The position numbers and the translations under genes were made by a program. 7,902 bases of DNA from a virus (taxonomy: Duplodnaviria > Heunggongvirae > Uroviricota > Caudoviricetes), in IMG/VR virus record IMGVR_UViG_2541047498_000013. One strand, given 5' to 3'. Below, piece after piece: positions 1-7,787 of the stretch (its first letter is position 1; each line of letters starts with the position of its first letter). Below the pieces are notes generated by a model. It did no database searches and was not told the origin of the DNA. It saw only the letters and a list, made by a program, of their open reading frames with translations.

Positions 1-121
1 CGCCAGATTCGGTTTTAAACGTTTTGCTTTTGGTATACGTCATCGCGGTGAATGTACCGTCCTGGTTGGGAAACACGCCGTACACCAGAGATTCGTTGTT
101 GCCAAGATCGATAGTATCCAT
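1..121 (-). CDS. Small phage protein, 5' end only (first 40 codons in window; gene continues beyond the left edge); possibly YdfA/DUF1391-like
   Basis: Minus-strand ATG at 121..119 preceded by GAGG about 5 nt upstream; open frame to the window edge reading MDTIDLGNNESLVYGVFPNQDGTFTAMTYTKSKTFKTESG. Too short for the supplied ORF track. Family name is from memory of small Qin/Rac prophage proteins and is uncertain. Confidence 0.55.
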   Translation of the reverse strand, partial: MDTIDLGNNESLVYGVFPNQDGTFTAMTYTKSKTFKTESG

Positions 122-313
122 GTTGACCTCATTTCCCCTTAACGCCGGGTAGCGGAACAAAAACCTGCTGCATAGTTATTAAAGTTGAACCCTGCCGTCA
201 TGTTCATACGCCTCGGGCTGGCTACTTACCCCCTGACCACTGCTTGGTAACTCGAAGTATTGCCCGGCGTTCTGTGGGGCGGGGTGGGTGGTTGGTGTAT
301 GTAATCTACAATA

Positions 314-341
314 AAAAACTGTTTTTGTGTCAACAGTTTTT
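314..341. promoter_or_regulatory. Palindromic operator-like site (left operator candidate): AAAAACTGTT-N8-AACAGTTTTT
   Basis: Perfect 10-bp inverted repeat read directly. The 16-mer ACAATAAAAAACTGTT at 308..323 is repeated exactly at 1343..1358. A TTGACA hexamer (minus strand, 333..328) lies inside the palindrome. Confidence 0.6.
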
Positions 342-354
342 AATTGTTGTTTTG

Positions 355-381
355 GGCAAAAAAATCCCTCGAAAGAGGGAG
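355..381 (-). terminator. Candidate Rho-independent terminator downstream of the ParE-like gene (minus strand)
   Basis: On the minus strand: stem TCCCTC / GAGGGA (365..370 pairs with 375..380), 4-nt loop, then a run of 7-8 T (plus-strand A run 357..364), starting 18 nt after the toxin stop codon. The stem is short (6 bp), so strength is uncertain. Confidence 0.5.
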
Positions 382-398
382 TATGAAAATTGTTCAAC

Positions 399-686
399 TC
401 AGATAGAGAAGGGAAATTGTCGCCGAGAATGTGTCACGCTTACAATCTCAATGCTTGAAGCAGCTACTCTGTACAGGATTATGTAGTTAGGGTGGGTCAC
501 GATCTCTCTCAATCCAGAAACCCGTTCGCTTGGTGGATATAAGTACGGATGCTCAGATAGAGGTAATACCGATGTTTCAATGCGTATTTTTAGTCTACGT
601 GCTGCCGGTGGGTTCTCCTTGGCGATGTAAGTTATGATCTGGCGCAAATCATCGCGAGCAGACGGTAGCCATAAAATGGGTAACAT
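399..686 (-). CDS. parE: Type II toxin, RelE/ParE superfamily (ParE2-like, gyrase-poisoning family)
   Basis: 95-aa ORF beginning MLPILWLPSARDDL and containing LPLSEHPYLYPPSERVSGLREIVTHPNYIILYRV, which I recognise as ParE-family motifs. Its ATG overlaps the upstream antitoxin stop by 1 nt (TAATG), the typical toxin-antitoxin coupling. Confidence 0.8.
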   Translation of the reverse strand: MLPILWLPSARDDLRQIITYIAKENPPAARRLKIRIETSVLPLSEHPYLYPPSERVSGLREIVTHPNYIILYRVAASSIEIVSVTHSRRQFPFSI

Positions 687-877
687 TACTCGCTCTTGTT
701 AGTTACAGCAATTTGAGCAATAAGATTTTCCATTTCAGCCATTACCTCGTCATGTGGAATTGCGGGGCGAGTGTCTGCAAGGCTTGACGTTACTTTAGTG
801 CGCAACCATTCGTTGTAACTGTTTTCTTGTTCGGTAGTTTCGAATTCTGAAACTATCGGAGAAAGGGCTGTACCCAT
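686..877 (-). CDS. paaA2: Type II antitoxin, PaaA2-like (small antitoxin partner of ParE2-type toxins)
   Basis: 63-aa ORF with SPIVSEFETTEQENSYNEWLRTKVTSSLADTRPAIPHDEV, recalled as closely resembling the 63-aa PaaA2 antitoxin. AGAGGAG Shine-Dalgarno 7 nt upstream of the ATG; sits immediately upstream of and overlapping the toxin. Confidence 0.75.
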   Translation of the reverse strand: MGTALSPIVSEFETTEQENSYNEWLRTKVTSSLADTRPAIPHDEVMAEMENLIAQIAVTNKSE

Positions 878-904
878 GGCATAACTCCTCTTCTTGTACT
901 GTGG

Positions 905-1306
905 TCACGCCCGGCGGCTTTTTTGTGCCGCCAGCCACCTAGCAATGGTTTCTTCCATTGATTTTTTCTTGTCTTTGATTTCTTGAAGCATTTTTTCTTG
1001 GTCTTCCTCAGGAAACGCACTAAAAGCTTGGAGCAGTTCGCGTTGGCGAGGACCAATTTTCATCGTGTCAGGGGTGAAAATTTGCTCACACTCTTCAGGA
1101 GGCAATAAAAACCAATGCAATGGATGCCCTGAAACCTCAACCAGTTTATCCAAACTTGAGGCTTTAGGTGTAGCCTTACCGCTGACCCATTGTTGAACAG
1201 TTTGTTGTGTCACACCAATTCTACGGGCAAGCTCAGCCTGGCTCCATCCAGTTTCCTGAAGAAGCTTGCTGATTCTGTACATAGATACTTCTAGGGCGCT
1301 CATCAT
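905..1306 (-). CDS. paaR2: XRE-family HTH transcriptional regulator, CI-like prophage repressor / PaaR2-like regulator of the toxin-antitoxin operon; no LexA-type peptidase domain seen
   Basis: 133-aa ORF with HTH motif WSQAELARRIGVTQQTVQQWVSGK; no GDSM-type S24 protease motif in the C-terminal half. First gene of a leftward three-gene cluster, divergent from the Cro-like gene. Start uncertain: ATG at 1306 has no Shine-Dalgarno (possibly leaderless); in-frame ATG at 1282 would give MYRISKLL. Confidence 0.75.
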   Translation of the reverse strand: MMSALEVSMYRISKLLQETGWSQAELARRIGVTQQTVQQWVSGKATPKASSLDKLVEVSGHPLHWFLLPPEECEQIFTPDTMKIGPRQRELLQAFSAFPEEDQEKMLQEIKDKKKSMEETIARWLAAQKSRRA

Positions 1307-1347
1307 TATTCAATTTTACAGGTAAATACTGTTAAAAGCATCACAAT

Positions 1348-1376
1348 AAAAAACTGTTGATTGCATACAGTTTTTT
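1348..1376. promoter_or_regulatory. Palindromic operator-like site (right operator candidate) in the divergent regulator / Cro-like intergenic region: AAAAAACTGT-N9-ACAGTTTTTT
   Basis: Perfect 10-bp inverted repeat sharing an exact 16-mer with the 308..341 site. Lies in the 108-bp gap between divergent regulator genes, where a lambdoid right operator would sit; a TTGATT -35-like hexamer is at 1358..1363. Confidence 0.6.
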
Positions 1377-1414
1377 ATTGTAGGCTTTGCTTATAGTTTT
1401 TAGAGGAGGGCAAA

Positions 1415-1687
1415 ATGCTAGATAGCACTCGCGAAAAAATTAGGCAGAAATACACTCAGGCTGAAATAGGTCGTTATATGGGGGTCGCTCAACAGACTGT
1501 TTGGCAATGGTTTAGCTTTGGCGTTCCCCCAAAGCAGGTAATTCCGTTATGCCAACTAATGAAGTGGGAAGTTACCCCGCATGAAATCCGCCCAGATATT
1601 TATCCTAACCCAACCGACGGTTTACCTGTTGGATGTAAGGTTAACACATCAAATGCGCCGGAGTTGATTCATGAAAATCAAGCATGA
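1415..1687 (+). CDS. ydaS: Cro-like HTH regulator (YdaS-family)
   Basis: 90-aa ORF with AGAGGAGGG Shine-Dalgarno 4-5 nt upstream; HTH segment QAEIGRYMGVAQQTVWQWF; divergent from the CI-like gene and overlapping the YdaT-like gene by 17 nt. Symbol by analogy to the Rac prophage locus, not by verified identity. Confidence 0.7.
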   Translation: MLDSTREKIRQKYTQAEIGRYMGVAQQTVWQWFSFGVPPKQVIPLCQLMKWEVTPHEIRPDIYPNPTDGLPVGCKVNTSNAPELIHENQA

Positions 1688-2096
1688 ACACATCCGCATG
1701 GCGATGAATGCCTGGGCGCATCCGGACGGCGAAAAAGTACCGGCTGCGAAAATTACCAAAGCGTATTTCGAGCTGGGAATGACGTTCCCGGAACTGTATG
1801 ACGACAGCCATCCGGAAGCCATGGCTCGCAATACTCAGAAAATTTTCCGCTGGGTGGAGAAAGACACTCCTGATGCGGTTAAAAAAATTCAGGCGTTGTT
1901 ACCAGCGATCGAAAAAGCGATGCCGCCTCCGCTGGTGGCCCGAATGCGCAGCCACAGTTCCGCTTATTTTCGGGAGTTGGTAGAGACGAAGGAACGGCTG
2001 GTGAAAGATATTGATGATTTCGTTGCATCAGCGATCGTTCTGTTCGATCAGATGAATCGTGGTGGCCCGGCAGGAAACACTCTGGCTGTGCATTAA
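1671..2096 (+). CDS. ydaT: YdaT-family protein (CII-like regulator; historically annotated as a putative toxin)
   Basis: 141-aa ORF beginning MKIKHEHIRMAMNAWAHPDGEKVPAAKITKAYFELGMTFPELYDDSHPEA, which I recognise as near-identical in pattern to Rac prophage YdaT. Position directly downstream of the Cro-like gene matches. Confidence 0.8.
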   Translation: MKIKHEHIRMAMNAWAHPDGEKVPAAKITKAYFELGMTFPELYDDSHPEAMARNTQKIFRWVEKDTPDAVKKIQALLPAIEKAMPPPLVARMRSHSSAYFRELVETKERLVKDIDDFVASAIVLFDQMNRGGPAGNTLAVH

Positions 2097-2109
2097 TTGG
2101 GTAATAAAT

Positions 2110-2619
2110 ATGAGTAATGACAAAAAATTGACACTGAGCGTTTACGAAAACAGTCCGCACATCTGGCGTGGCGGTTTATCTGATGTGGAGCTGGCAGAGT
2201 GGTTGATACATAAAGCTAATGCGCTGCTCTGGCGTTTGTCAGCCAGAGAACAGCGCAAGGAAACCAGAATAAAGCTGGCTGATGCAGAAGCGTGTGCCGG
2301 GCTTATTGAGGATTATACAAATCTTGGTATTTCTTCAGCAGAGAGTGATCCCATTCAGCCTCTGAGCAGGGAGTCAATCCAGCACGCTGGTTGTATGGCA
2401 CATCTTGTAACTGCTCGTCAACATGAGGTGGGTATTGGATCACTTCCGGCGGGATATTCGCTGATTCCAGAGCTGGTTGAAGCAAGAAAATCAGTTCAGA
2501 AAAAGAGAGATGACGCACTTCAATTATTGAGAGAGCACTATGGCGCGATACCAGAATGCGAACAGCGTCGATACCCTGAAGGTTATGAATGGATGCAGTC
2601 TCTTTTTGAAGTTCGCTAA
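2110..2619 (+). CDS. Hypothetical phage protein (169 aa from ATG 2110; the ORF is open from 2059)
   Basis: Long ORF in the same orientation as the flanking early genes. Start chosen at MSNDKKLTL (ATG 2110), 14 nt after the ydaT stop; no strong Shine-Dalgarno. No family recognised. Confidence 0.55.
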   Translation: MSNDKKLTLSVYENSPHIWRGGLSDVELAEWLIHKANALLWRLSAREQRKETRIKLADAEACAGLIEDYTNLGISSAESDPIQPLSRESIQHAGCMAHLVTARQHEVGIGSLPAGYSLIPELVEARKSVQKKRDDALQLLREHYGAIPECEQRRYPEGYEWMQSLFEVR

Positions 2620-2836
2620 TCAATATGTCGAGACGAAGGTATGTTTCGGCGCGCAGCCAGGCTCTGTAATCCGGGAGCATTTCGGGGCTGTTACACCAGC
2701 GGTTTGTTGCTGCAACATTTAATACATGAGCCTGATAAAGGCTTTTCAAAAAATACATGTCGAACCTCCTCTGGTTCTGTCGATTGGGAACCACAGATTA
2801 TATCCGGAGGAAGGTTCGGCACCAGATGAGGTAGCC

Positions 2837-3928
2837 ATGCGTGATTACGCAAAAGTTTCTCCGCGATTCTGGCTGGGAGAAACGGGGAGAGAACTTAGAA
2901 AGGCGGGTGCAGAAGCGCAAGTTGTTGCTTTTTACCTGATGACATCCCCTCACGCAAATATGCTGGGTTTGTATTACCTGCCAGTTTTATACCTTGCTCA
3001 TGAAACCGGGCTTGGTCTGGAAGGGGCTTCAAAGGGGCTTAAAAGGGCTGTTGAAGCTGGTTTTTGTAGCTATGACCATGATGCAGAGATGGTCTGGGTC
3101 CATGAAATGGCAGCCTGGCAGGTTGGGGAAACGTTGAAGCCTGGCGATAACCGTTGTGCAGGTGTCAGGAATGAGTATGCATCATTACCTGAAAACGCTT
3201 TTCTGTCAGTGTTTTACGACAGATATAAAACGGATTTCCATCTGGATGTGAGGCGGAATAATAGCCGAAATTCGGTAAGGGGCTTCGAAGGGGCTTTTAA
3301 GGGGCTTCGAAGCCAAGAACAGGAACAGGAGCAGGAGAAAGAACAGGAACAGGACAAAAACACTATGGTTCATGGCAAAAAAAACACCACGAACCAGGCA
3401 GGGGATGTTCAGACCGTCAATCCTGGTCAGCCAGCAGGCACGACACCGGAAGCCGATTCGGGCGCTGTGCAGCAGGTGATGACCGCAGGGTCGGAGCAAT
3501 CACACCAACTGCAGCAGCCTGAAGCCGATTCCGCCATTCAGCGGGAAGCCGATCGGGTAGTCCCGGAAAGCACCGGGCAGTCTGTGGGACGAGTGGATTA
3601 TCCGGATGTGTTCGAACAGGTCTGGCGGGAATACCCGTTGCGTGCTGGGGCAAACCCGAAGAAATCCGCTTTCAGTGCCTGGAAGGCCAGATTGCGCGAG
3701 GGGGTGCCACCAGAGACCATGCTGGATGGTGTGAGGCGTTACGCGAGATACCTGGCGGCGACCGGGAAAGCGGGAACGGAATTTGTTCAGCGAGCGACGA
3801 CGTTTTTTGGGCCGGACCGGAATTTTGAAAACCCCTGGTTGCTCCCGGTAAGCGGCACGAACAACCAGCGTTGTGTGAATCATATTTCTGAACCGGATAC
3901 CGAAATTCCGCCGGGATTCAGGGGGTGA
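2837..3928 (+). CDS. Phage replication initiation protein (lambda O-like / Rac YdaU-like role), with internal repeats and a QEQEQE low-complexity linker
   Basis: Long ORF immediately upstream of the DnaC-like loader gene. Start taken at ATG 2837 (MRDYAKVSPRFWLGETGREL) with GAGG 5 nt upstream; the ORF is open from ATG 2726 but that codon has no Shine-Dalgarno. Internal AAGGGGCTT repeats and A-rich tract are consistent with an origin embedded in an initiator gene. Confidence 0.65.
   Translation: MRDYAKVSPRFWLGETGRELRKAGAEAQVVAFYLMTSPHANMLGLYYLPVLYLAHETGLGLEGASKGLKRAVEAGFCSYDHDAEMVWVHEMAAWQVGETLKPGDNRCAGVRNEYASLPENAFLSVFYDRYKTDFHLDVRRNNSRNSVRGFEGAFKGLRSQEQEQEQEKEQEQDKNTMVHGKKNTTNQAGDVQTVNPGQPAGTTPEADSGAVQQVMTAGSEQSHQLQQPEADSAIQREADRVVPESTGQSVGRVDYPDVFEQVWREYPLRAGANPKKSAFSAWKARLREGVPPETMLDGVRRYARYLAATGKAGTEFVQRATTFFGPDRNFENPWLLPVSGTNNQRCVNHISEPDTEIPPGFRG
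3021..3049. repeat. Iteron-like direct repeats, cluster 1: AAGGGGCTT x2 plus AAGGGCT at 11-bp phasing
   Basis: Copies start at 3021, 3032 and 3043 (read directly); they encode the GLEGASKGLKRA segment of the initiator. Confidence 0.5.
3277..3308. repeat. Iteron-like direct repeats, cluster 2: AAGGGGCTT x3 at exact 11-bp phasing
   Basis: Copies at 3277..3286, 3288..3296 and 3299..3308, immediately followed by a GAACAG-type hexanucleotide repeat and an A-rich tract. Confidence 0.55.
3316..3355. repeat. Imperfect hexanucleotide tandem repeat (GAACAG/GAGCAG units) encoding QEQEQEQEKEQEQ
   Basis: AGAACAGGAACAGGAGCAGGAGAAAGAACAGGAACAGGAC read directly; followed by an A-rich stretch to about 3390. 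Confidence 0.6.
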
Positions 3929-3934
3929 TGTGGC

Positions 3935-4681
3935 ATGAAAAACATTGCGGCAGCCGGGGTTCTTGAACGTATTCGCAGACTTGCACCACAGGCGTCGGTT
4001 CCACCGTACCGGACGGTGGAGGAGTGGCGGGAATGGCAACTTGCTGAAGGACGAAAACGCAGCGAGGAGATTAACCGCCAGAATCACCAGTTGCGGGTGG
4101 AAAAAATCCTGAATCGTTCGGGCATCCAGCCTCTGCACAGCAAATGCTCGTTTGCGAATTATCAGGTGCAGAACGACGGGCAAAAATACGCGCTGAGCCA
4201 GGCCAAATCCATAGCTGACGAACTGATGACCGGGTGCACGAATTTTGTGTTCAGCGGTAAAACCGGCACCGGGAAAAATCACCTTGCAGCGGCGATGGGT
4301 AACCGGCTGATGGCGAAGGGGCGCAGCGTGATTATCGTCACCGTGTCTGATGTCATGAGCGTGTTGCATGACAGCTACGACAACGGCAAATCCGGGGAAA
4401 AATTTTTACAGGAGCTTTGCAGTGTTGATTTGCTGGTCCTGGATGAAATAGGCGTTCAGCGGGAGACGAAAAACGAGCAGGTGGTATTACACCAGATAAT
4501 TGATCGCCGGACAGCATCACTGTGCAGTGTCGGGATGTTAACAAACCTGAATCATGCCGCAATGAGTACACTTCTTGGTGAGAGGATTATGGACCGCATG
4601 ACCATGAACGGTGGTCGATGGGTGACGTTTAACTGGGATAGCTGGCGTCCAAATGTCAGCAATATGAGGGTTGTGAAGTAA
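3935..4681 (+). CDS. DnaC-like replicative helicase loader (AAA+ ATPase; Rac YdaV-like)
   Basis: 248-aa ORF with Walker A GKTGTGKNHLAAA and Walker B LLVLDEIG, and overall DnaC-like layout. GGGGGTGATG Shine-Dalgarno-like sequence upstream; starts 7 nt after the initiator stop. Confidence 0.85.
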   Translation: MKNIAAAGVLERIRRLAPQASVPPYRTVEEWREWQLAEGRKRSEEINRQNHQLRVEKILNRSGIQPLHSKCSFANYQVQNDGQKYALSQAKSIADELMTGCTNFVFSGKTGTGKNHLAAAMGNRLMAKGRSVIIVTVSDVMSVLHDSYDNGKSGEKFLQELCSVDLLVLDEIGVQRETKNEQVVLHQIIDRRTASLCSVGMLTNLNHAAMSTLLGERIMDRMTMNGGRWVTFNWDSWRPNVSNMRVVK

Positions 4682-4702
4682 TTTTGTCCGGAGGAAATTT
4701 TA

Positions 4703-5419
4703 ATGGAAACCGTATCTGACGCACTGAAAGCACTGAAAAGAGCCTCTTCACATGTGGTGGCAGCTCGCCTTGGAATTAGTCGTGAAGAGGCTGTCAACGA
4801 ACTGTGGAAACTGAAACGCCGTGGAGAAGCGGATAACAAGGGGGCGATATGGTGGCTGACTCAGGCTGGTGAAAGTGAACCGGTGTCACCGGTACCGAAA
4901 GTGACGGCGCAAATGCTGACAGAGGCGATTGAACAACATGGCCCACAAACGGCGGATGAACTGGCATTGATGTTCGGAATTACCTCCCGCCGGGCGAATT
5001 CATCGCTGGCAATGGCAATCAGCAAAGGGTGTCTGATTCGCGTGAATCAGGATGGTAAATTTCGTTACTGCATACCGGGCGTTGATTTACCGGCAGAGCC
5101 GAAAGCAGCATCCGTAGCTGAAACGGAGGGTAAAGCCCTTCCTCAGCCAGCTGGTGTTGCGTTACCAGTCCAGGAAACGGCTGCACAGGAAGAAATTAAA
5201 ACAGAAGCGGTGGAGGACATTGTGAAGTTGCAGCAATCGTTCACTGAAGCGAAAGCAGATGACCTGATTCTACCATCGCTGCATGTGGCTAACCGCGAGC
5301 TGCGCCGGGCGAAAAGTAATGTTCAGAAGTGGGAGCGAGTCTGTGCTGCGCTACGGGAACTGAACAAACACAGGGATATTCTCCGGGATATTACCGCCAC
5401 CAGAGAGCAGCAGCGGTGA
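4703..5419 (+). CDS. Hypothetical phage protein with two predicted winged-helix-like segments and a C-terminal coiled-coil-like region (possibly DUF1627-like)
   Basis: 238-aa ORF with GGAGG Shine-Dalgarno 7-8 nt upstream. Segments [25 protein letters not shown] and [27 protein letters not shown] look like HTH / winged-helix motifs. The DUF name is from memory only. Confidence 0.6.
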
Positions 5420-5733
5420 GTGGCTGGAAGAAGTGGCGCTGGGCTGAAATCCTGATACTCCGGCAGTGTGCGGGAACGATGAGAGTCGAAAGCATCGGTT
5501 ATCTGATTGGCCGTAGTGAGTCAGCCGTCAGGACGAAAGCGCGGGAACTGGGTATCAGCATGATGTTACGGGGTGATTATCACCAGTCAGCCAAATGTTC
5601 ACAGCGTGATATTGAGCTGGCGTGGCAACTGCATCAGCGTGGTGTACCCCGACGGGAAATTGCCGAAAAGTTTGGGATGAAGTTGGGCGCAGTGAATAAC
5701 TACGTTTATTTCGACAGGAGGGTTCAGGAGTGA
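5416..5733 (+). CDS. Hypothetical small DNA-binding protein (two HTH-like segments)
   Basis: ORF open from 5329. Start placed at GTG 5416, which overlaps the upstream stop (GTGA) with a GAGAG Shine-Dalgarno-like sequence 8 nt upstream; ATG 5479 is an alternative. Contains [21 protein letters not shown] and [22 protein letters not shown]. Confidence 0.5.
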
Positions 5734-6032
5734 GGGTGAGGGTTTATATCGCCGGTCCGATGACGGGATATGAAAATTTTAACCGCGAGGCATTTCACAA
5801 AACGGAAGAGGTGCTGAAACGGGAAGGGCATACCGTTTTAAACCCGGCAGTACTTCCGGACGGGCTGACTCAGCCACACTACATGGATATTTGCATGGCA
5901 ATGCTCCGTTGCGTGGATGCGGTTTACATGCTGAAAGGCTGGCAGCAGTCGGCAGGTGCAGGGGCTGAGCTGGCACTGGAGGAGAAACCGGGCCATGCGG
6001 TGATTTTTCAGGAGGTGGGCAGTGAATATTGA
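5730..6032 (+). CDS. DUF4406-like protein (nucleoside 2-deoxyribosyltransferase-like fold)
   Basis: 100-aa ORF beginning RVYIAGPMTGYENFN and continuing HTVLNPA...YMLKGWQQSAGAGAELALEE, which I recognise as the DUF4406 / NDT-like signature. GTG start overlaps the upstream stop (GTGA); GTG 5736 with AGGAG 5 nt upstream is an alternative start. Confidence 0.7.
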   Translation: MRVRVYIAGPMTGYENFNREAFHKTEEVLKREGHTVLNPAVLPDGLTQPHYMDICMAMLRCVDAVYMLKGWQQSAGAGAELALEEKPGHAVIFQEVGSEY

Positions 6033-6339
6033 CCCGGCGATAACGATTGATATGGCCCTGAACGCCGGCCTGGCACTTCTTGGTTATTTCTACATTATGT
6101 TCTGCAGCGGACGATGGCTGTCACTGTTGTTCATGAAAAAATGGAATAAACGCCGTAAGCAGGAGCAACGCCAGAAGGCAATGGATGCATTTTTCGAAGC
6201 CTTCGGAATTGACGGCATGGAACCAGGGGATCCAGCTCGCGCAATCAGCAGAGGGGGTGTAGTAATCCTTGTATATCGGAGTGAAGAGAAAAATGACGAT
6301 CACAAAACAACGTGTAGAAGAAATCATATCCCGCATTGA
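6022..6339 (+). CDS. Small predicted membrane protein (one hydrophobic helix followed by a basic KKWNKRRKQEQRQK stretch), function unknown
   Basis: GTG start with AGGAGGTG Shine-Dalgarno 5 nt upstream, overlapping the end of the DUF4406-like gene by 11 nt. Hydrophobic segment MALNAGLALLGYFYIMFCSGRWLSLLFM. A 71-aa antisense ORF (6121..6336) is considered less likely. Confidence 0.5.
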   Translation: MNIDPAITIDMALNAGLALLGYFYIMFCSGRWLSLLFMKKWNKRRKQEQRQKAMDAFFEAFGIDGMEPGDPARAISRGGVVILVYRSEEKNDDHKTTCRRNHIPH

Positions 6340-6610
6340 AATGTATGGACATGGTGCAGGGTATATCGCAGACGAGGTTAATGATCTGGCTATACTGGCG
6401 CTGAATTTATCAAATATCGCGAACCTGAAGCGATACGAGCTTGATATGGGAGGTTGCGACTCGTGCGGTCAGGATTGTGGCGCTGATATGACTGAAGATC
6501 CTGATGGTGATTATGTCCTGTTTGATGACGTGGTTAAGTTGTTTGAATTTGATACAACCACTCAAAAGTTAGAAATCCCGGCAAAGGAGGCAGCCAGTGG
6601 GCAAGATTGA
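6293..6610 (+). CDS. Hypothetical acidic phage protein with a Cys cluster (CDSCGQDCGAD)
   Basis: ORF open from TTG 6269. ATG 6293 (MTITKQRVEEI) chosen; start uncertain because no strong Shine-Dalgarno. Overlaps neighbours on both sides in a different frame. Confidence 0.5.
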   Translation: MTITKQRVEEIISRIEMYGHGAGYIADEVNDLAILALNLSNIANLKRYELDMGGCDSCGQDCGADMTEDPDGDYVLFDDVVKLFEFDTTTQKLEIPAKEAASGQD

Positions 6611-7034
6611 CTATCAGGCACTGCGTGAGGCAGCACAAAACTATCAATCGACGCTGGCGTGGTATCAGGCTACCCCGGACAGCCCAAATGCTGAACGGGA
6701 TTGTGATGCGGCTCTTGCTGCGTTTAAGCGTCACATCCGTCATCGGGAAGCGGATATTATCGCTGATTTGCTGGATGGACTGGAAGAAGCAAAATCACAA
6801 CTCAACGAGCAGCGTGAGTATTACGAAGGCGTTATCTCTGATGGGAGCAAGCGTATTGCTGAACTGGAAGCGCGGGAAGTTCAATTACCGACTCGCTACG
6901 ACCTTCGATATGGACACCCGATAAATGCAGATGAGCGACATGTCATGATACCTAAAGAAAATGGCAGTTGGCTTTACCTGATTGACCTAGAACACGCATT
7001 ACGCGTCGCTGGCATTCGCATCAAAGGAGAGTGA
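6597..7034 (+). CDS. Hypothetical phage protein (145 aa) with a predicted central coiled-coil-like region
   Basis: GTG start with AAGGAGG Shine-Dalgarno 6 nt upstream; overlaps the upstream gene by 14 nt; stop overlaps the next gene's Shine-Dalgarno. Confidence 0.6.
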   Translation: MGKIDYQALREAAQNYQSTLAWYQATPDSPNAERDCDAALAAFKRHIRHREADIIADLLDGLEEAKSQLNEQREYYEGVISDGSKRIAELEAREVQLPTRYDLRYGHPINADERHVMIPKENGSWLYLIDLEHALRVAGIRIKGE

Positions 7035-7035
7035 G

Positions 7036-7227
7036 ATGAACGGACAAATATCAATTGTTCGACCAGGAGCATGTGACGATCGCGAAATACGAATGATTAT
7101 TCGTCTGGCGATGGGGAAAACAATAACTGCTCTCATTACTCCAGAAAATCTCGCATTAGCATTAACAGGAAAGTCAGACATGCCAGTAGAGCTAAAGCTG
7201 CGAAATGTTGAGATTAAGGTGAAATAG
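7036..7227 (+). CDS. Hypothetical small phage protein (63 aa)
   Basis: ATG with AAGGAG Shine-Dalgarno 6 nt upstream, 1 nt after the upstream stop. Confidence 0.6.
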   Translation: MNGQISIVRPGACDDREIRMIIRLAMGKTITALITPENLALALTGKSDMPVELKLRNVEIKVK

Positions 7228-7229
7228 CT

Positions 7230-7787
7230 ATGACCACTATTACCAAAGATCGACTGCTGACAATCCAGCATTGGCGCGAAACATACGGACCGGGTAGCAA
7301 CGTTGTGCTTCCAGCAGAAGAAGCGGAAGAGCTGGCACGGATTGCGCTGGCATCACTGGCAGCAGTATCGGATGAACGAGCAGCCTATGAATTATTTATG
7401 GAGAAGCGTTTCGGAGAATCTGTAGATCGCCGCAGAGCAAAAAATGGCGATAGAGATTACATGGTATGGGATATGGCGCTTGGCTGGATTATCTGGTGTC
7501 ACCGCGCCGCCATGCTTCAGGCTGGAAACTTTCGGGAAAATAAGGGTTCGTCAACCAATAATTTTCGGGAAATCTCGGAAACGTCAACCAACTATCCGGC
7601 AATCCCTGATGAGGTGTTGTCCGCAATCCTGAAGGTCGCCAGGCTTCGTGCAGATTTCGATGCTTCTGAAGTGGACAGGCGAGGTATCGGTAGTTGTCTG
7701 GATGAGGCCGAGCAAGAACTTATCGTTACCATTAACGAATACGCCAGTCAGATCGCAGTAGAAGCGACACAGGGGGAGAACCAATGA
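7230..7787 (+). CDS. Hypothetical phage protein (185 aa)
   Basis: ATG 2 nt after the upstream stop with AAGGTG 7-8 nt upstream; long ORF co-oriented with the cassette. No family recognised. Confidence 0.6.
   Translation: MTTITKDRLLTIQHWRETYGPGSNVVLPAEEAEELARIALASLAAVSDERAAYELFMEKRFGESVDRRRAKNGDRDYMVWDMALGWIIWCHRAAMLQAGNFRENKGSSTNNFREISETSTNYPAIPDEVLSAILKVARLRADFDASEVDRRGIGSCLDEAEQELIVTINEYASQIAVEATQGENQ

Follow-up and report, generated by a model that had tools for sequence, protein, structure and literature searches.

A ParE-PaaA toxin-antitoxin pair in a lambdoid immunity region: the probable paaR1-paaA1-parE1 operon of prophage Sp4/CP-933M and a predicted operator map

Is a ParE/PaaA-type toxin-antitoxin (TA) pair embedded in a phage immunity region a known module, and does a single repressor govern both the lysogenic switch and the toxin? 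The question is raised by three leftward genes at positions 399-1306 of the IMG/VR virus record IMGVR_UViG_2541047498_000013 (Caudoviricetes), a stretch of 7,902 nucleotides (nt) here called the window. The region very probably represents the paaR1-paaA1-parE1 operon of the defective lambdoid prophage Sp4/CP-933M of Escherichia coli O157:H7, a three-component type II TA system in the immunity region. The system is already known, as the locus is named and published and detailed work exists on how its sister copy is regulated. What is new here is only detail: an operator and promoter map for this immunity type, a 434-like repressor-operator pair, and covariation of operators and regulators across four immunity types.

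Identity and maintenance of the operon

Window positions 8-4739 are identical at every base to prophage Sp4 of E. coli O157:H7 Sakai, where the region is annotated as 'prophage Sp4, lambda-like phage'. The operon genes are therefore ECs_1067 to ECs_1069. The Sakai annotation lists ECs_1067 as a plasmid stabilization system protein and ECs_1069 as a phage repressor protein. The segment 150-2100 is 100% identical to each of the 15 best-listed chromosomes, and those with names are E. coli O157:H7. We take CP-933M of strain EDL933 to be the equivalent of Sp4 of Sakai. With this equivalence and a published homologue on CP-933M, the window copy is paaR1-paaA1-parE1 (Hallez et al. 2010, Mol Microbiol 76:719, as cited in PMC8630535 and PMC4803016). 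Sakai holds a second copy in prophage Sp12 (ECs_2279-2281), encoding PaaR2, PaaA2 and ParE2, and the N-terminus of the Sp12 regulator, MQKKE, is that of PaaR2 as sequenced in PMC8630535. This two-copy content agrees with the published description of two paralogous O157:H7 systems, with paaR2-paaA2-parE2 studied on CP-933P (equal to Sp12) and a homologue on CP-933M (PMC8630535; PMC4803016).

The three gene products fit these names. ParE1 is 100% identical to the ECs_1067 product and matches the Pfam family ParE_toxin (PF05016; E 2.9e-17, 63.5 bits with a cut-off of 23) as well as the solved ParE2 chain 5cw7_B (E 3e-36). PaaA1 matches Pfam PaaA2 (PF21217; E 5.6e-19) and the solved PaaA2 chain 3zbe (E 1.4e-20). 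PaaA2 is its sole Pfam match at E<=0.1, and hence the antitoxin carries no DNA-binding domain. The regulator PaaR1 matches Pfam HTH_3 (E 2.3e-12) and related Cro/C1 models. The ParE_toxin, PaaA2 and HTH_3 matches all exceed their cut-offs. The operon thus combines a ParE-fold toxin near ParE1/ParE2, a PaaA antitoxin and a separate upstream helix-turn-helix (HTH) regulator, which is the composition of a three-component TA system.

The arrangement of the genes points to a single transcript. A gap of 27 nt, with a GAGGAG Shine-Dalgarno sequence before paaA1, separates paaR1 from paaA1. Position 686 is common to the paaA1 stop and the parE1 start, a 1-nt overlap that reads TA[A]TG on the minus strand. 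The terminator scan found no terminator between paaR1 and position 380. Nineteen bases past the toxin stop begins the stem TCCCTC-TTTC-GAGGGA, with T7 after it. This is a short hairpin, and a 51-nt stretch folds at -9.9 kcal/mol. Much of the initial annotation, which had been made from the letters of the DNA, is upheld by these results. Three co-oriented minus-strand genes for an HTH regulator, a 63-amino-acid (aa) antitoxin and a 95-aa toxin are present, the ParE and PaaA2 family assignments were borne out by profile searches and by matches to solved structures, and both the TAATG overlap and the terminator after the toxin are where they had been placed. Its mention of a paaR2-paaA2-parE2 locus in an O157:H7 prophage was correct, with the window holding the paralogue in Sp4 (PMC8630535; PMC4803016), and its expectation that the module was probably known in kind is confirmed by the Sp4 identity and the published locus.

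Several functions of Sp4 are defective, and the score 'D' has been given to its repressor for a missing peptidase domain (PMC2669165). The locus might thus be a decaying remnant, in which PaaR1 is a truncated non-functional CI and the TA genes are inactive passengers. However, the three open reading frames (ORFs) are intact and identical across hundreds of O157:H7 genomes. The ratio of nonsynonymous to synonymous substitution rates (dN/dS) between diverged copies is 0.03-0.06 for parE, 0.07-0.31 for paaA and 0.14 for paaR, a sign of purifying selection, and the genes are therefore maintained rather than decaying. The C-terminal domain of PaaR is kept across four immunity types, including the functional PaaR2. 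A review moreover describes both O157:H7 PaaA-ParE systems as functional and mutually specific, with antitoxins that do not cross-neutralise. We rejected decay on the intact ORFs, the purifying selection and the conserved PaaR domain, and regard it as very improbable. A maintained paaR1-paaA1-parE1 operon is the reading that we follow below.

The operon is widespread in E. coli. Positions 399-1306 were recovered from 833 of 5426 complete E. coli genomes (blastn, word 11); 438 chromosome records carry the region at >=99% identity, and the named ones listed are all O157:H7. The CP-933P-type locus is present in 633 of the 5426 genomes (megablast). A ParE2-like toxin was found in a single one of 50,697 phage genome records (tblastn, E<=1e-5), that of Escherichia phage Evi (LR597642). 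The module would seem to be strongly enriched in prophages that are resident and often defective. The Evi copy served as our stand-in for CP-933P, and its ParE has the same sequence as the solved ParE2 (100% identity).

The regulator, its predicted operators and the immunity switch

The closest solved relative of PaaR1 is the HTH of the 434 repressor (E 3e-5), and the search of the PDB with PaaR1 returned no PaaR relative beyond generic HTH domains. The recognition helix TQQTVQQW of PaaR1 keeps Gln28, Gln29 and Gln33 of the 434 repressor helix TQQSIEQL, and the roles of these residues are known from 434-operator crystal structures. Residues 11-130, nearly the full length, match the DicA model NF007257 (8.4e-14), but the 51.5 bits fall below the curated cut-off of 101. 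Peptidase_S24 is absent among the best 25 of the 35 Pfam families matching PaaR1 at E<=0.1, and the literature also describes the Sp4 repressor as devoid of a peptidase domain (PMC2669165). PaaR1 consists of an N-terminal 434/DicA-like HTH and a C-terminal domain of ~50 aa common to PaaR2 and two other immunity types. Since there is no S24 peptidase domain, PaaR1 is CI-like in function and position only and not a member of the CI/LexA family. SOS induction via repressor self-cleavage is therefore not expected. The description of PaaR1 as a 'CI-like regulator' in the initial annotation thus stands for function and position and fails for family, where the protein resembles DicA and the 434 HTH (PMC2669165 for the missing domain).

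Among related loci of E. coli we distinguish at least four immunity types. One comprises the window and strain IHE3034, and another CP-933P and phage Evi. A further type occurs in two strains with a 132-aa PaaR that is 64-66% identical to PaaR1, and one strain has a 166-aa regulator. Across types, PaaR proteins share only the C-terminal ~45-50 residues (LLQxFxAFPEEDQ...ARWLAAQKxRRA), and the HTH domains are swapped, as seen when window 905-1306 was compared with L002 (E. coli 2013C-4991), L006/L007 and L003/L008. This pattern suggests a common oligomerisation module under interchangeable DNA-binding heads.

The initial annotation had reported identical operator-like palindromes on both sides of the operon. 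A repeat search recovers a palindrome on each flank, with the two sites of the left operator region (OL) as the arms of one and the OR2-like and OR1-like sites of the right operator region (OR) as the arms of the other (Table 1). The flanking positions thus stand, while the identity does not. The two are near-identical: in the right palindrome the arms match perfectly across a 9-nt spacer, and in the left one they differ at one position and are 10 nt apart. The 15-mer ACAATAAAAAACTGT occurs in four copies at <=1 mismatch, confined to the two palindromes. Shuffled sequences gave 0.28 copies on average, and none of 200 shuffles reached four. Given the 15-bp pattern, each palindrome corresponds to an inverted pair of operators. 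A relaxed pattern (ACARTN5AYTGT) adds a third site, OR3-like and absent from the initial annotation, and OR is therefore composed of three 15-bp sites at centre-to-centre distances of 25 and 24 bp. In OL the corresponding distance between the two sites is 25 bp. OR is tripartite, as in lambda and 434, whereas OL carries two sites. The repressor and cro-like genes diverge across a 108-bp intergenic region that holds the three sites, with two of the same operators beyond the toxin gene. These observations support the palindromes as predicted operators of PaaR1.

Comparison across immunity types points in the same direction. Each of the four types has its own repeated motif, common to OR and OL, and the operators covary with the regulator. 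At the same time promoter hexamers and flanks stay aligned, including a G-rich block left of OL, YdaT and the PaaR C-terminal domain. A motif swap amid constant flanks is the classical signature of interchangeable immunity cassettes and supports the operator assignment from sequence comparison. OL also sits where the validated PL933P/OL lies in CP-933P, directly downstream of parE2 (PMC8630535). The published CP-933P primers for electrophoretic mobility shift assays and PL constructs match the corresponding sequences of Evi and JNE120393, and OL here is therefore positionally equivalent to PL933P.

Three candidate promoters accompany the operators. The candidate -10 of PRM has the geometry of the leaderless paaR2 gene, where GATAAT is followed by 6 nt and ATG. 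A leaderless mRNA is accordingly predicted for paaR1, which by analogy is probably translated from a leaderless PRM transcript. The candidate PR, whose -35 lies in the inter-operator spacer, corresponds in position to TTGATA-17-TATAAA of type 3 loci. TGTTGAT does not vary in the alignments of immunity types, and at the left end TGTTGACA is likewise constant when the OL regions of types 1 and 3 are aligned.

Table 1. Coordinates of genes, predicted operators, candidate promoters and the terminator in the immunity region of the window
Feature	Position	Strand	Basis
Candidate PL: -35 TTGACA, between the two OL sites; candidate -10 TAGATT at 308-303	328..333	-	sequence; inference
OL-like region: two inverted 15-bp sites with a 10-nt gap, 308-322 ACAATAAAAAACTGT and 333-347 ACAGTTTTTAATTGT	303..352		repeat and motif searches; position of PL933P
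Intrinsic terminator of the paaR-paaA-parE transcript: stem 380-365, T-run 364-355	355..380	-	terminator scan; folding
parE1: 95-aa ParE-family toxin, Sakai ECs_1067	399..686	-	ORF list; Pfam; solved chains; Sakai identity
paaA1: 63-aa PaaA-family antitoxin, Sakai ECs_1068	686..877	-	ORF list; Pfam; solved chains
paaR1: 133-aa repressor, Sakai ECs_1069	905..1306	-	ORF list; Pfam; solved chains; NCBIfam; alignments
Candidate PRM: -10 TAAAAT, 6 nt upstream of the paaR1 ATG	1313..1318	-	sequence; paaR2 geometry; CATTTTACA conserved in type 3 loci
OR3-like degenerate operator ACAGGTAAATACTGT, overlapping the PRM -10	1318..1332		relaxed pattern; 25 bp centre-to-centre from next site
OR2-like operator ACAATAAAAAACTGT, between the PRM and PR -35 regions	1343..1357		repeat and motif searches
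Candidate PR: -35 TTGATT 1357-1362, 18-nt spacer, -10 TAGGCT 1381-1386	1357..1386	+	sequence; inference
OR1-like operator ACAGTTTTTTATTGT, within the PR spacer	1367..1381		repeat and motif searches
Cro analogue, YdaS-like, Sakai ECs_1070	1415..1687	+	ORF list; Pfam; Sakai; alignment
Predicted YdaT operator OM, perfect TTGATT-N6-AATCAA, spanning the ydaS end and the ydaT start codon	1664..1681		motif footprinted in PMC9986795
CII analogue YdaT, Sakai ECs_1071; 90% identical to phage Evi YdaT	1671..2096	+	ORF list; Pfam; alignment

The experimental model for the switch is the CP-933P copy. There PaaR2 is the CI analogue with a leaderless mRNA, YdaS the Cro analogue and YdaT the CII analogue (PMC8630535, mBio 2021). 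PaaR2 and YdaS bind overlapping operators in a 97-bp intergenic region, and a second operator set with promoter PL933P lies just past parE2. The locus is bistable and stabilises a plasmid (all PMC8630535). That one regulator serves both the lysogenic switch and the toxin operon, as the initial annotation had supposed, has been demonstrated for this sister copy (PMC8630535), and for the window it is supported by the conserved architecture and the operator-regulator covariation. The YdaS-like recognition helix QQTVWQW resembles QQTVQQW of PaaR1, which is consistent with competition of the two proteins for the same operators. The perfect YdaT site OM is the exact counterpart of the CP-933P footprint site.

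The two rightward genes have also to be considered as TA genes themselves, with PaaR merely a neighbouring regulator. Their products match Pfam YdaS_toxin and YdaT_toxin, family names that are misleading here and wrongly suggest a second TA pair. In the sister prophage both proteins were shown to be DNA-binding Cro and CII analogues and not a TA pair (PMC8630535; PMC9986795). We rejected YdaS/YdaT as the TA pair on these experiments and on the perfect YdaT operator in the window, and consider it the least credible of the readings weighed here. The TA pair of the locus remains PaaA1-ParE1.

A proposed mechanism and the role of the pair

The most likely course of events for paaR1-paaA1-parE1 is as follows. 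PaaR1, DicA/434-repressor-like and without a peptidase domain, would be made from a leaderless PRM transcript and would bind 15-bp ACA(A/G)T-N5-A(C/T)TGT operators, of which OR (1318-1381) has three and OL (308-347) two. Bound there, PaaR1 would repress transcription from the leftward PL and from the divergent PR, which serves the ydaS (cro) and ydaT (cII) analogues. It would likewise control its own transcript, which includes paaA1 and parE1 and runs to the terminator. The YdaS-like Cro analogue, with its near-identical recognition helix, would compete for the PaaR1 operators and thereby create a bistable switch, and YdaT would bind its own site for CII-like activation. PaaA1, without a DNA-binding domain, would neutralise ParE1 through direct binding. 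Upon loss of the locus the labile PaaA1 would decay and free ParE1, resulting in post-segregational killing. Such addiction would stabilise both prophage and immunity cassette. Experiments on the sister copy alone have shown binding to DNA, regulation of the promoters, the leaderless start, bistability and stabilisation of a plasmid, and for the window these properties are expected by analogy.

Several points weigh against this account. A scan of the intergenic region and of OL with the sigma-70 consensus returned no promoter, and the hexamers of the candidate PR, PL and PRM are weak and sub-threshold. For this reason we base the promoter calls on homology of position to the promoters mapped in CP-933P and on sequences conserved from one immunity type to the next. 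The candidate PL has a 19-nt spacer in the window compared with 18 nt in IHE3034. PaaR1 and PaaR2 share 37% identity with barely alignable HTH domains, and DNA-binding behaviour such as octamerisation and low-dose activation may therefore differ between them. No experiment on the operators or promoters of this copy was found in the searchable literature, and the statements on toxicity and specificity of PaaA1/ParE1 rest on the review mentioned above. That review reports ParE toxicity, neutralisation by the cognate PaaA and post-segregational killing for both O157:H7 copies, and PMC8630535 does so for the sister copy. In the sister system, ParE2 activity was detected in neither transcriptional state (PMC8630535). 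A final point concerns the toxin target. Gyrase poisoning, ascribed to the ParE family in the initial annotation, is not established for the ParE2 subfamily, and ParE2 of O157 is reported to show neither GyrA59 binding nor gyrase inhibition (PMC10886550, citing Sterckx 2016). The study of the sister copy finds that ParE2 induces the SOS response and co-localises with the nucleoid, and it describes the target as still to be uncovered (PMC8630535). For ParE1, a molecular target would be assigned by analogy with such relatives.

The position of the pair allows another role. PaaA-ParE might mainly be an abortive-infection or superinfection-exclusion device that replaces lambda rexAB, with a superinfecting phage depleting PaaA1 through host-transcription shut-off or proteases. 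The position of paaA-parE is equivalent to that of rexAB, as noted in PMC9986795, and the operon is placed under the lysogenic promoter. PaaA2 is degraded by ClpAP/ClpXP (PMC8630535), and the distribution described above, common in prophages and almost absent from phage genomes, would also suit a resident defence. On the other side, the toxin and antitoxin match no PADLOC model. In PADLOC-DB, ParE1, PaaA1, YdaS and YdaT were all without a match, and the regulator had only generic HTH matches. The papers found in a literature search describe no defence phenotype, and the authors of the sister-system study favour addiction and genome stabilisation and saw no toxin activation upon transcriptional change (PMC8630535). 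A defence role of paaA-parE is thus speculative, and we consider it unlikely that exclusion is the main function. A broader version of the idea, to which we likewise give a small chance, holds that paaA-parE is an abortive-infection or exclusion module, or an 'immunity-cassette addiction' that kills immunity-swap recombinants, and not a simple stabiliser. It could be such a module because it occupies the exact rexAB slot and diversifies with the immunity cassette, and the 434-like operators could allow cross-talk with imm434 phages. Addiction in the form proposed above remains our preferred function for the paaA1-parE1 pair.

In E. coli prophages the PaaA-ParE pair is carried by immunity cassettes that can be exchanged and that have at least four specificities, which fits the published idea that it stabilises the immunity region. 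The main value of the present analysis is correct annotation, with little beyond. RefSeq labels for the three proteins are generic ('RelE/ParE family toxin', 'RelB family antitoxin', 'helix-turn-helix domain-containing protein'). A useful yield is a concrete map of predicted operators, open to experimental test, for immunity type CP-933M/Sp4; its 15-bp sites are 434-like, and OR has three of them and OL two.

Neighbouring sequence and relation to known systems

The remainder of the window is mosaic. Inside a DUF1627 gene the Sp4 identity extends to position 4739, 5 mismatches follow in 4740-4813, and the sequence is unrelated after 4816. The right part resembles other lambdoid and Shiga toxin (Stx) phages, and positions 6009-7605 are ~96% identical to Stx1a phages. 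A search of the complete E. coli genomes of the collection with the whole window recovered none in which >=80% of it lies at a single place. In this non-Sp4 part, 5730-6032 and 6597-7034 encode a DUF4406 protein (2e-33) and an Ead/Ea22-like protein (2.2e-13), which are ordinary lambdoid nin-region or accessory genes. Left of OL, ~170 nt (122-295) precede the DUF1391 gene, which opens the leftward operon and starts at 121 on the minus strand. In all four immunity types this sequence is highly conserved; the G-rich block GGGGCGGGGTGGGT lies in it at ~268-281. No convincing ORF and no Rfam match were found in 122-295, and Rfam gave no RNA family anywhere in the window. The 122-295 stretch might serve the PL transcript as a conserved leader or as an element of the antitermination type. 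An antisense gene (2303-2758, minus strand) between ydaT and the genes for replication encodes an 'ECs1072 family phage-associated protein' (NCBIfam 2.1e-30, no Pfam match), and a 186-aa ORF at 2059-2619 overlaps this gene on the opposite strand. The gene at 2726-3928 (plus strand) occupies the replication-initiator position. Its product has no Pfam or NCBIfam match and contains a low-complexity linker, QEQEQEQEKEQEQD, at ~residues 207-220. The RefSeq start of this gene is later, at window position 2837.

Among known systems, paaR1-paaA1-parE1 of Sakai Sp4/CP-933M is the same locus, with no difference within the operon. CP-933P/Sp12 shares the architecture, namely a leaderless-type repressor gene, antitoxin, toxin, terminator, OL/PL on the left, OR with divergent ydaS-ydaT on the right, and OM. 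Immunity specificity differs between the two, with operators of the ACAATAAAAAACTGT type here and of the GTTTAGTAA type there. Comparison of the window with Evi gives 66% identity for ParE, 62% for PaaA and 90% for YdaT, whereas YdaS is at 23% and PaaR is conserved only over the C-terminal ~50 residues.

The switch is also similar to that of phage 434, with a homologous HTH, three OR sites, and a repressor and Cro with a common recognition helix. Operators in the annotated phage 434 genome (OL657226) read ACAA-N6-TTGT, and OR3 is ACAGTTTTTCTTGT (ACAG); the outer half-sites of the window operators, ACAA/ACAG, agree with those of 434 OR1-OR3. The 434 operators are 14 bp long at a spacing of 22-23 bp, compared with 15 bp and 24-25 bp here. 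In contrast to the 434 repressor, PaaR1 has a PaaR/DicA-type C-terminal domain in place of the S24 peptidase domain. The 434 cI gene has an annotated ribosome-binding site, whereas the paaR1 start is predicted to be leaderless.

The lambda cI-rexA-rexB operon offers a further parallel, as repressor and accessory genes are co-transcribed from PRM in the lysogen between OL/PL and OR/PR flanks. The lambda repressor mRNA is leaderless, as predicted for paaR1. The accessory genes here are however a type II TA pair and not RexAB, the repressor is not RecA-cleavable, and the Cro and CII analogues YdaS and YdaT are unrelated in sequence to the lambda proteins. With the classical ParD-ParE modules of RK2 and Vibrio cholerae (parDE2) the pair shares the ParE fold, a labile antitoxin and the character of an addictive module. 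Gyrase inhibition is reported as not observed for ParE2, the closest characterised relative (PMC10886550). Unlike the antitoxins of ParD-ParE modules, PaaA1 lacks a DNA-binding domain, so that regulation passes to a separate repressor.

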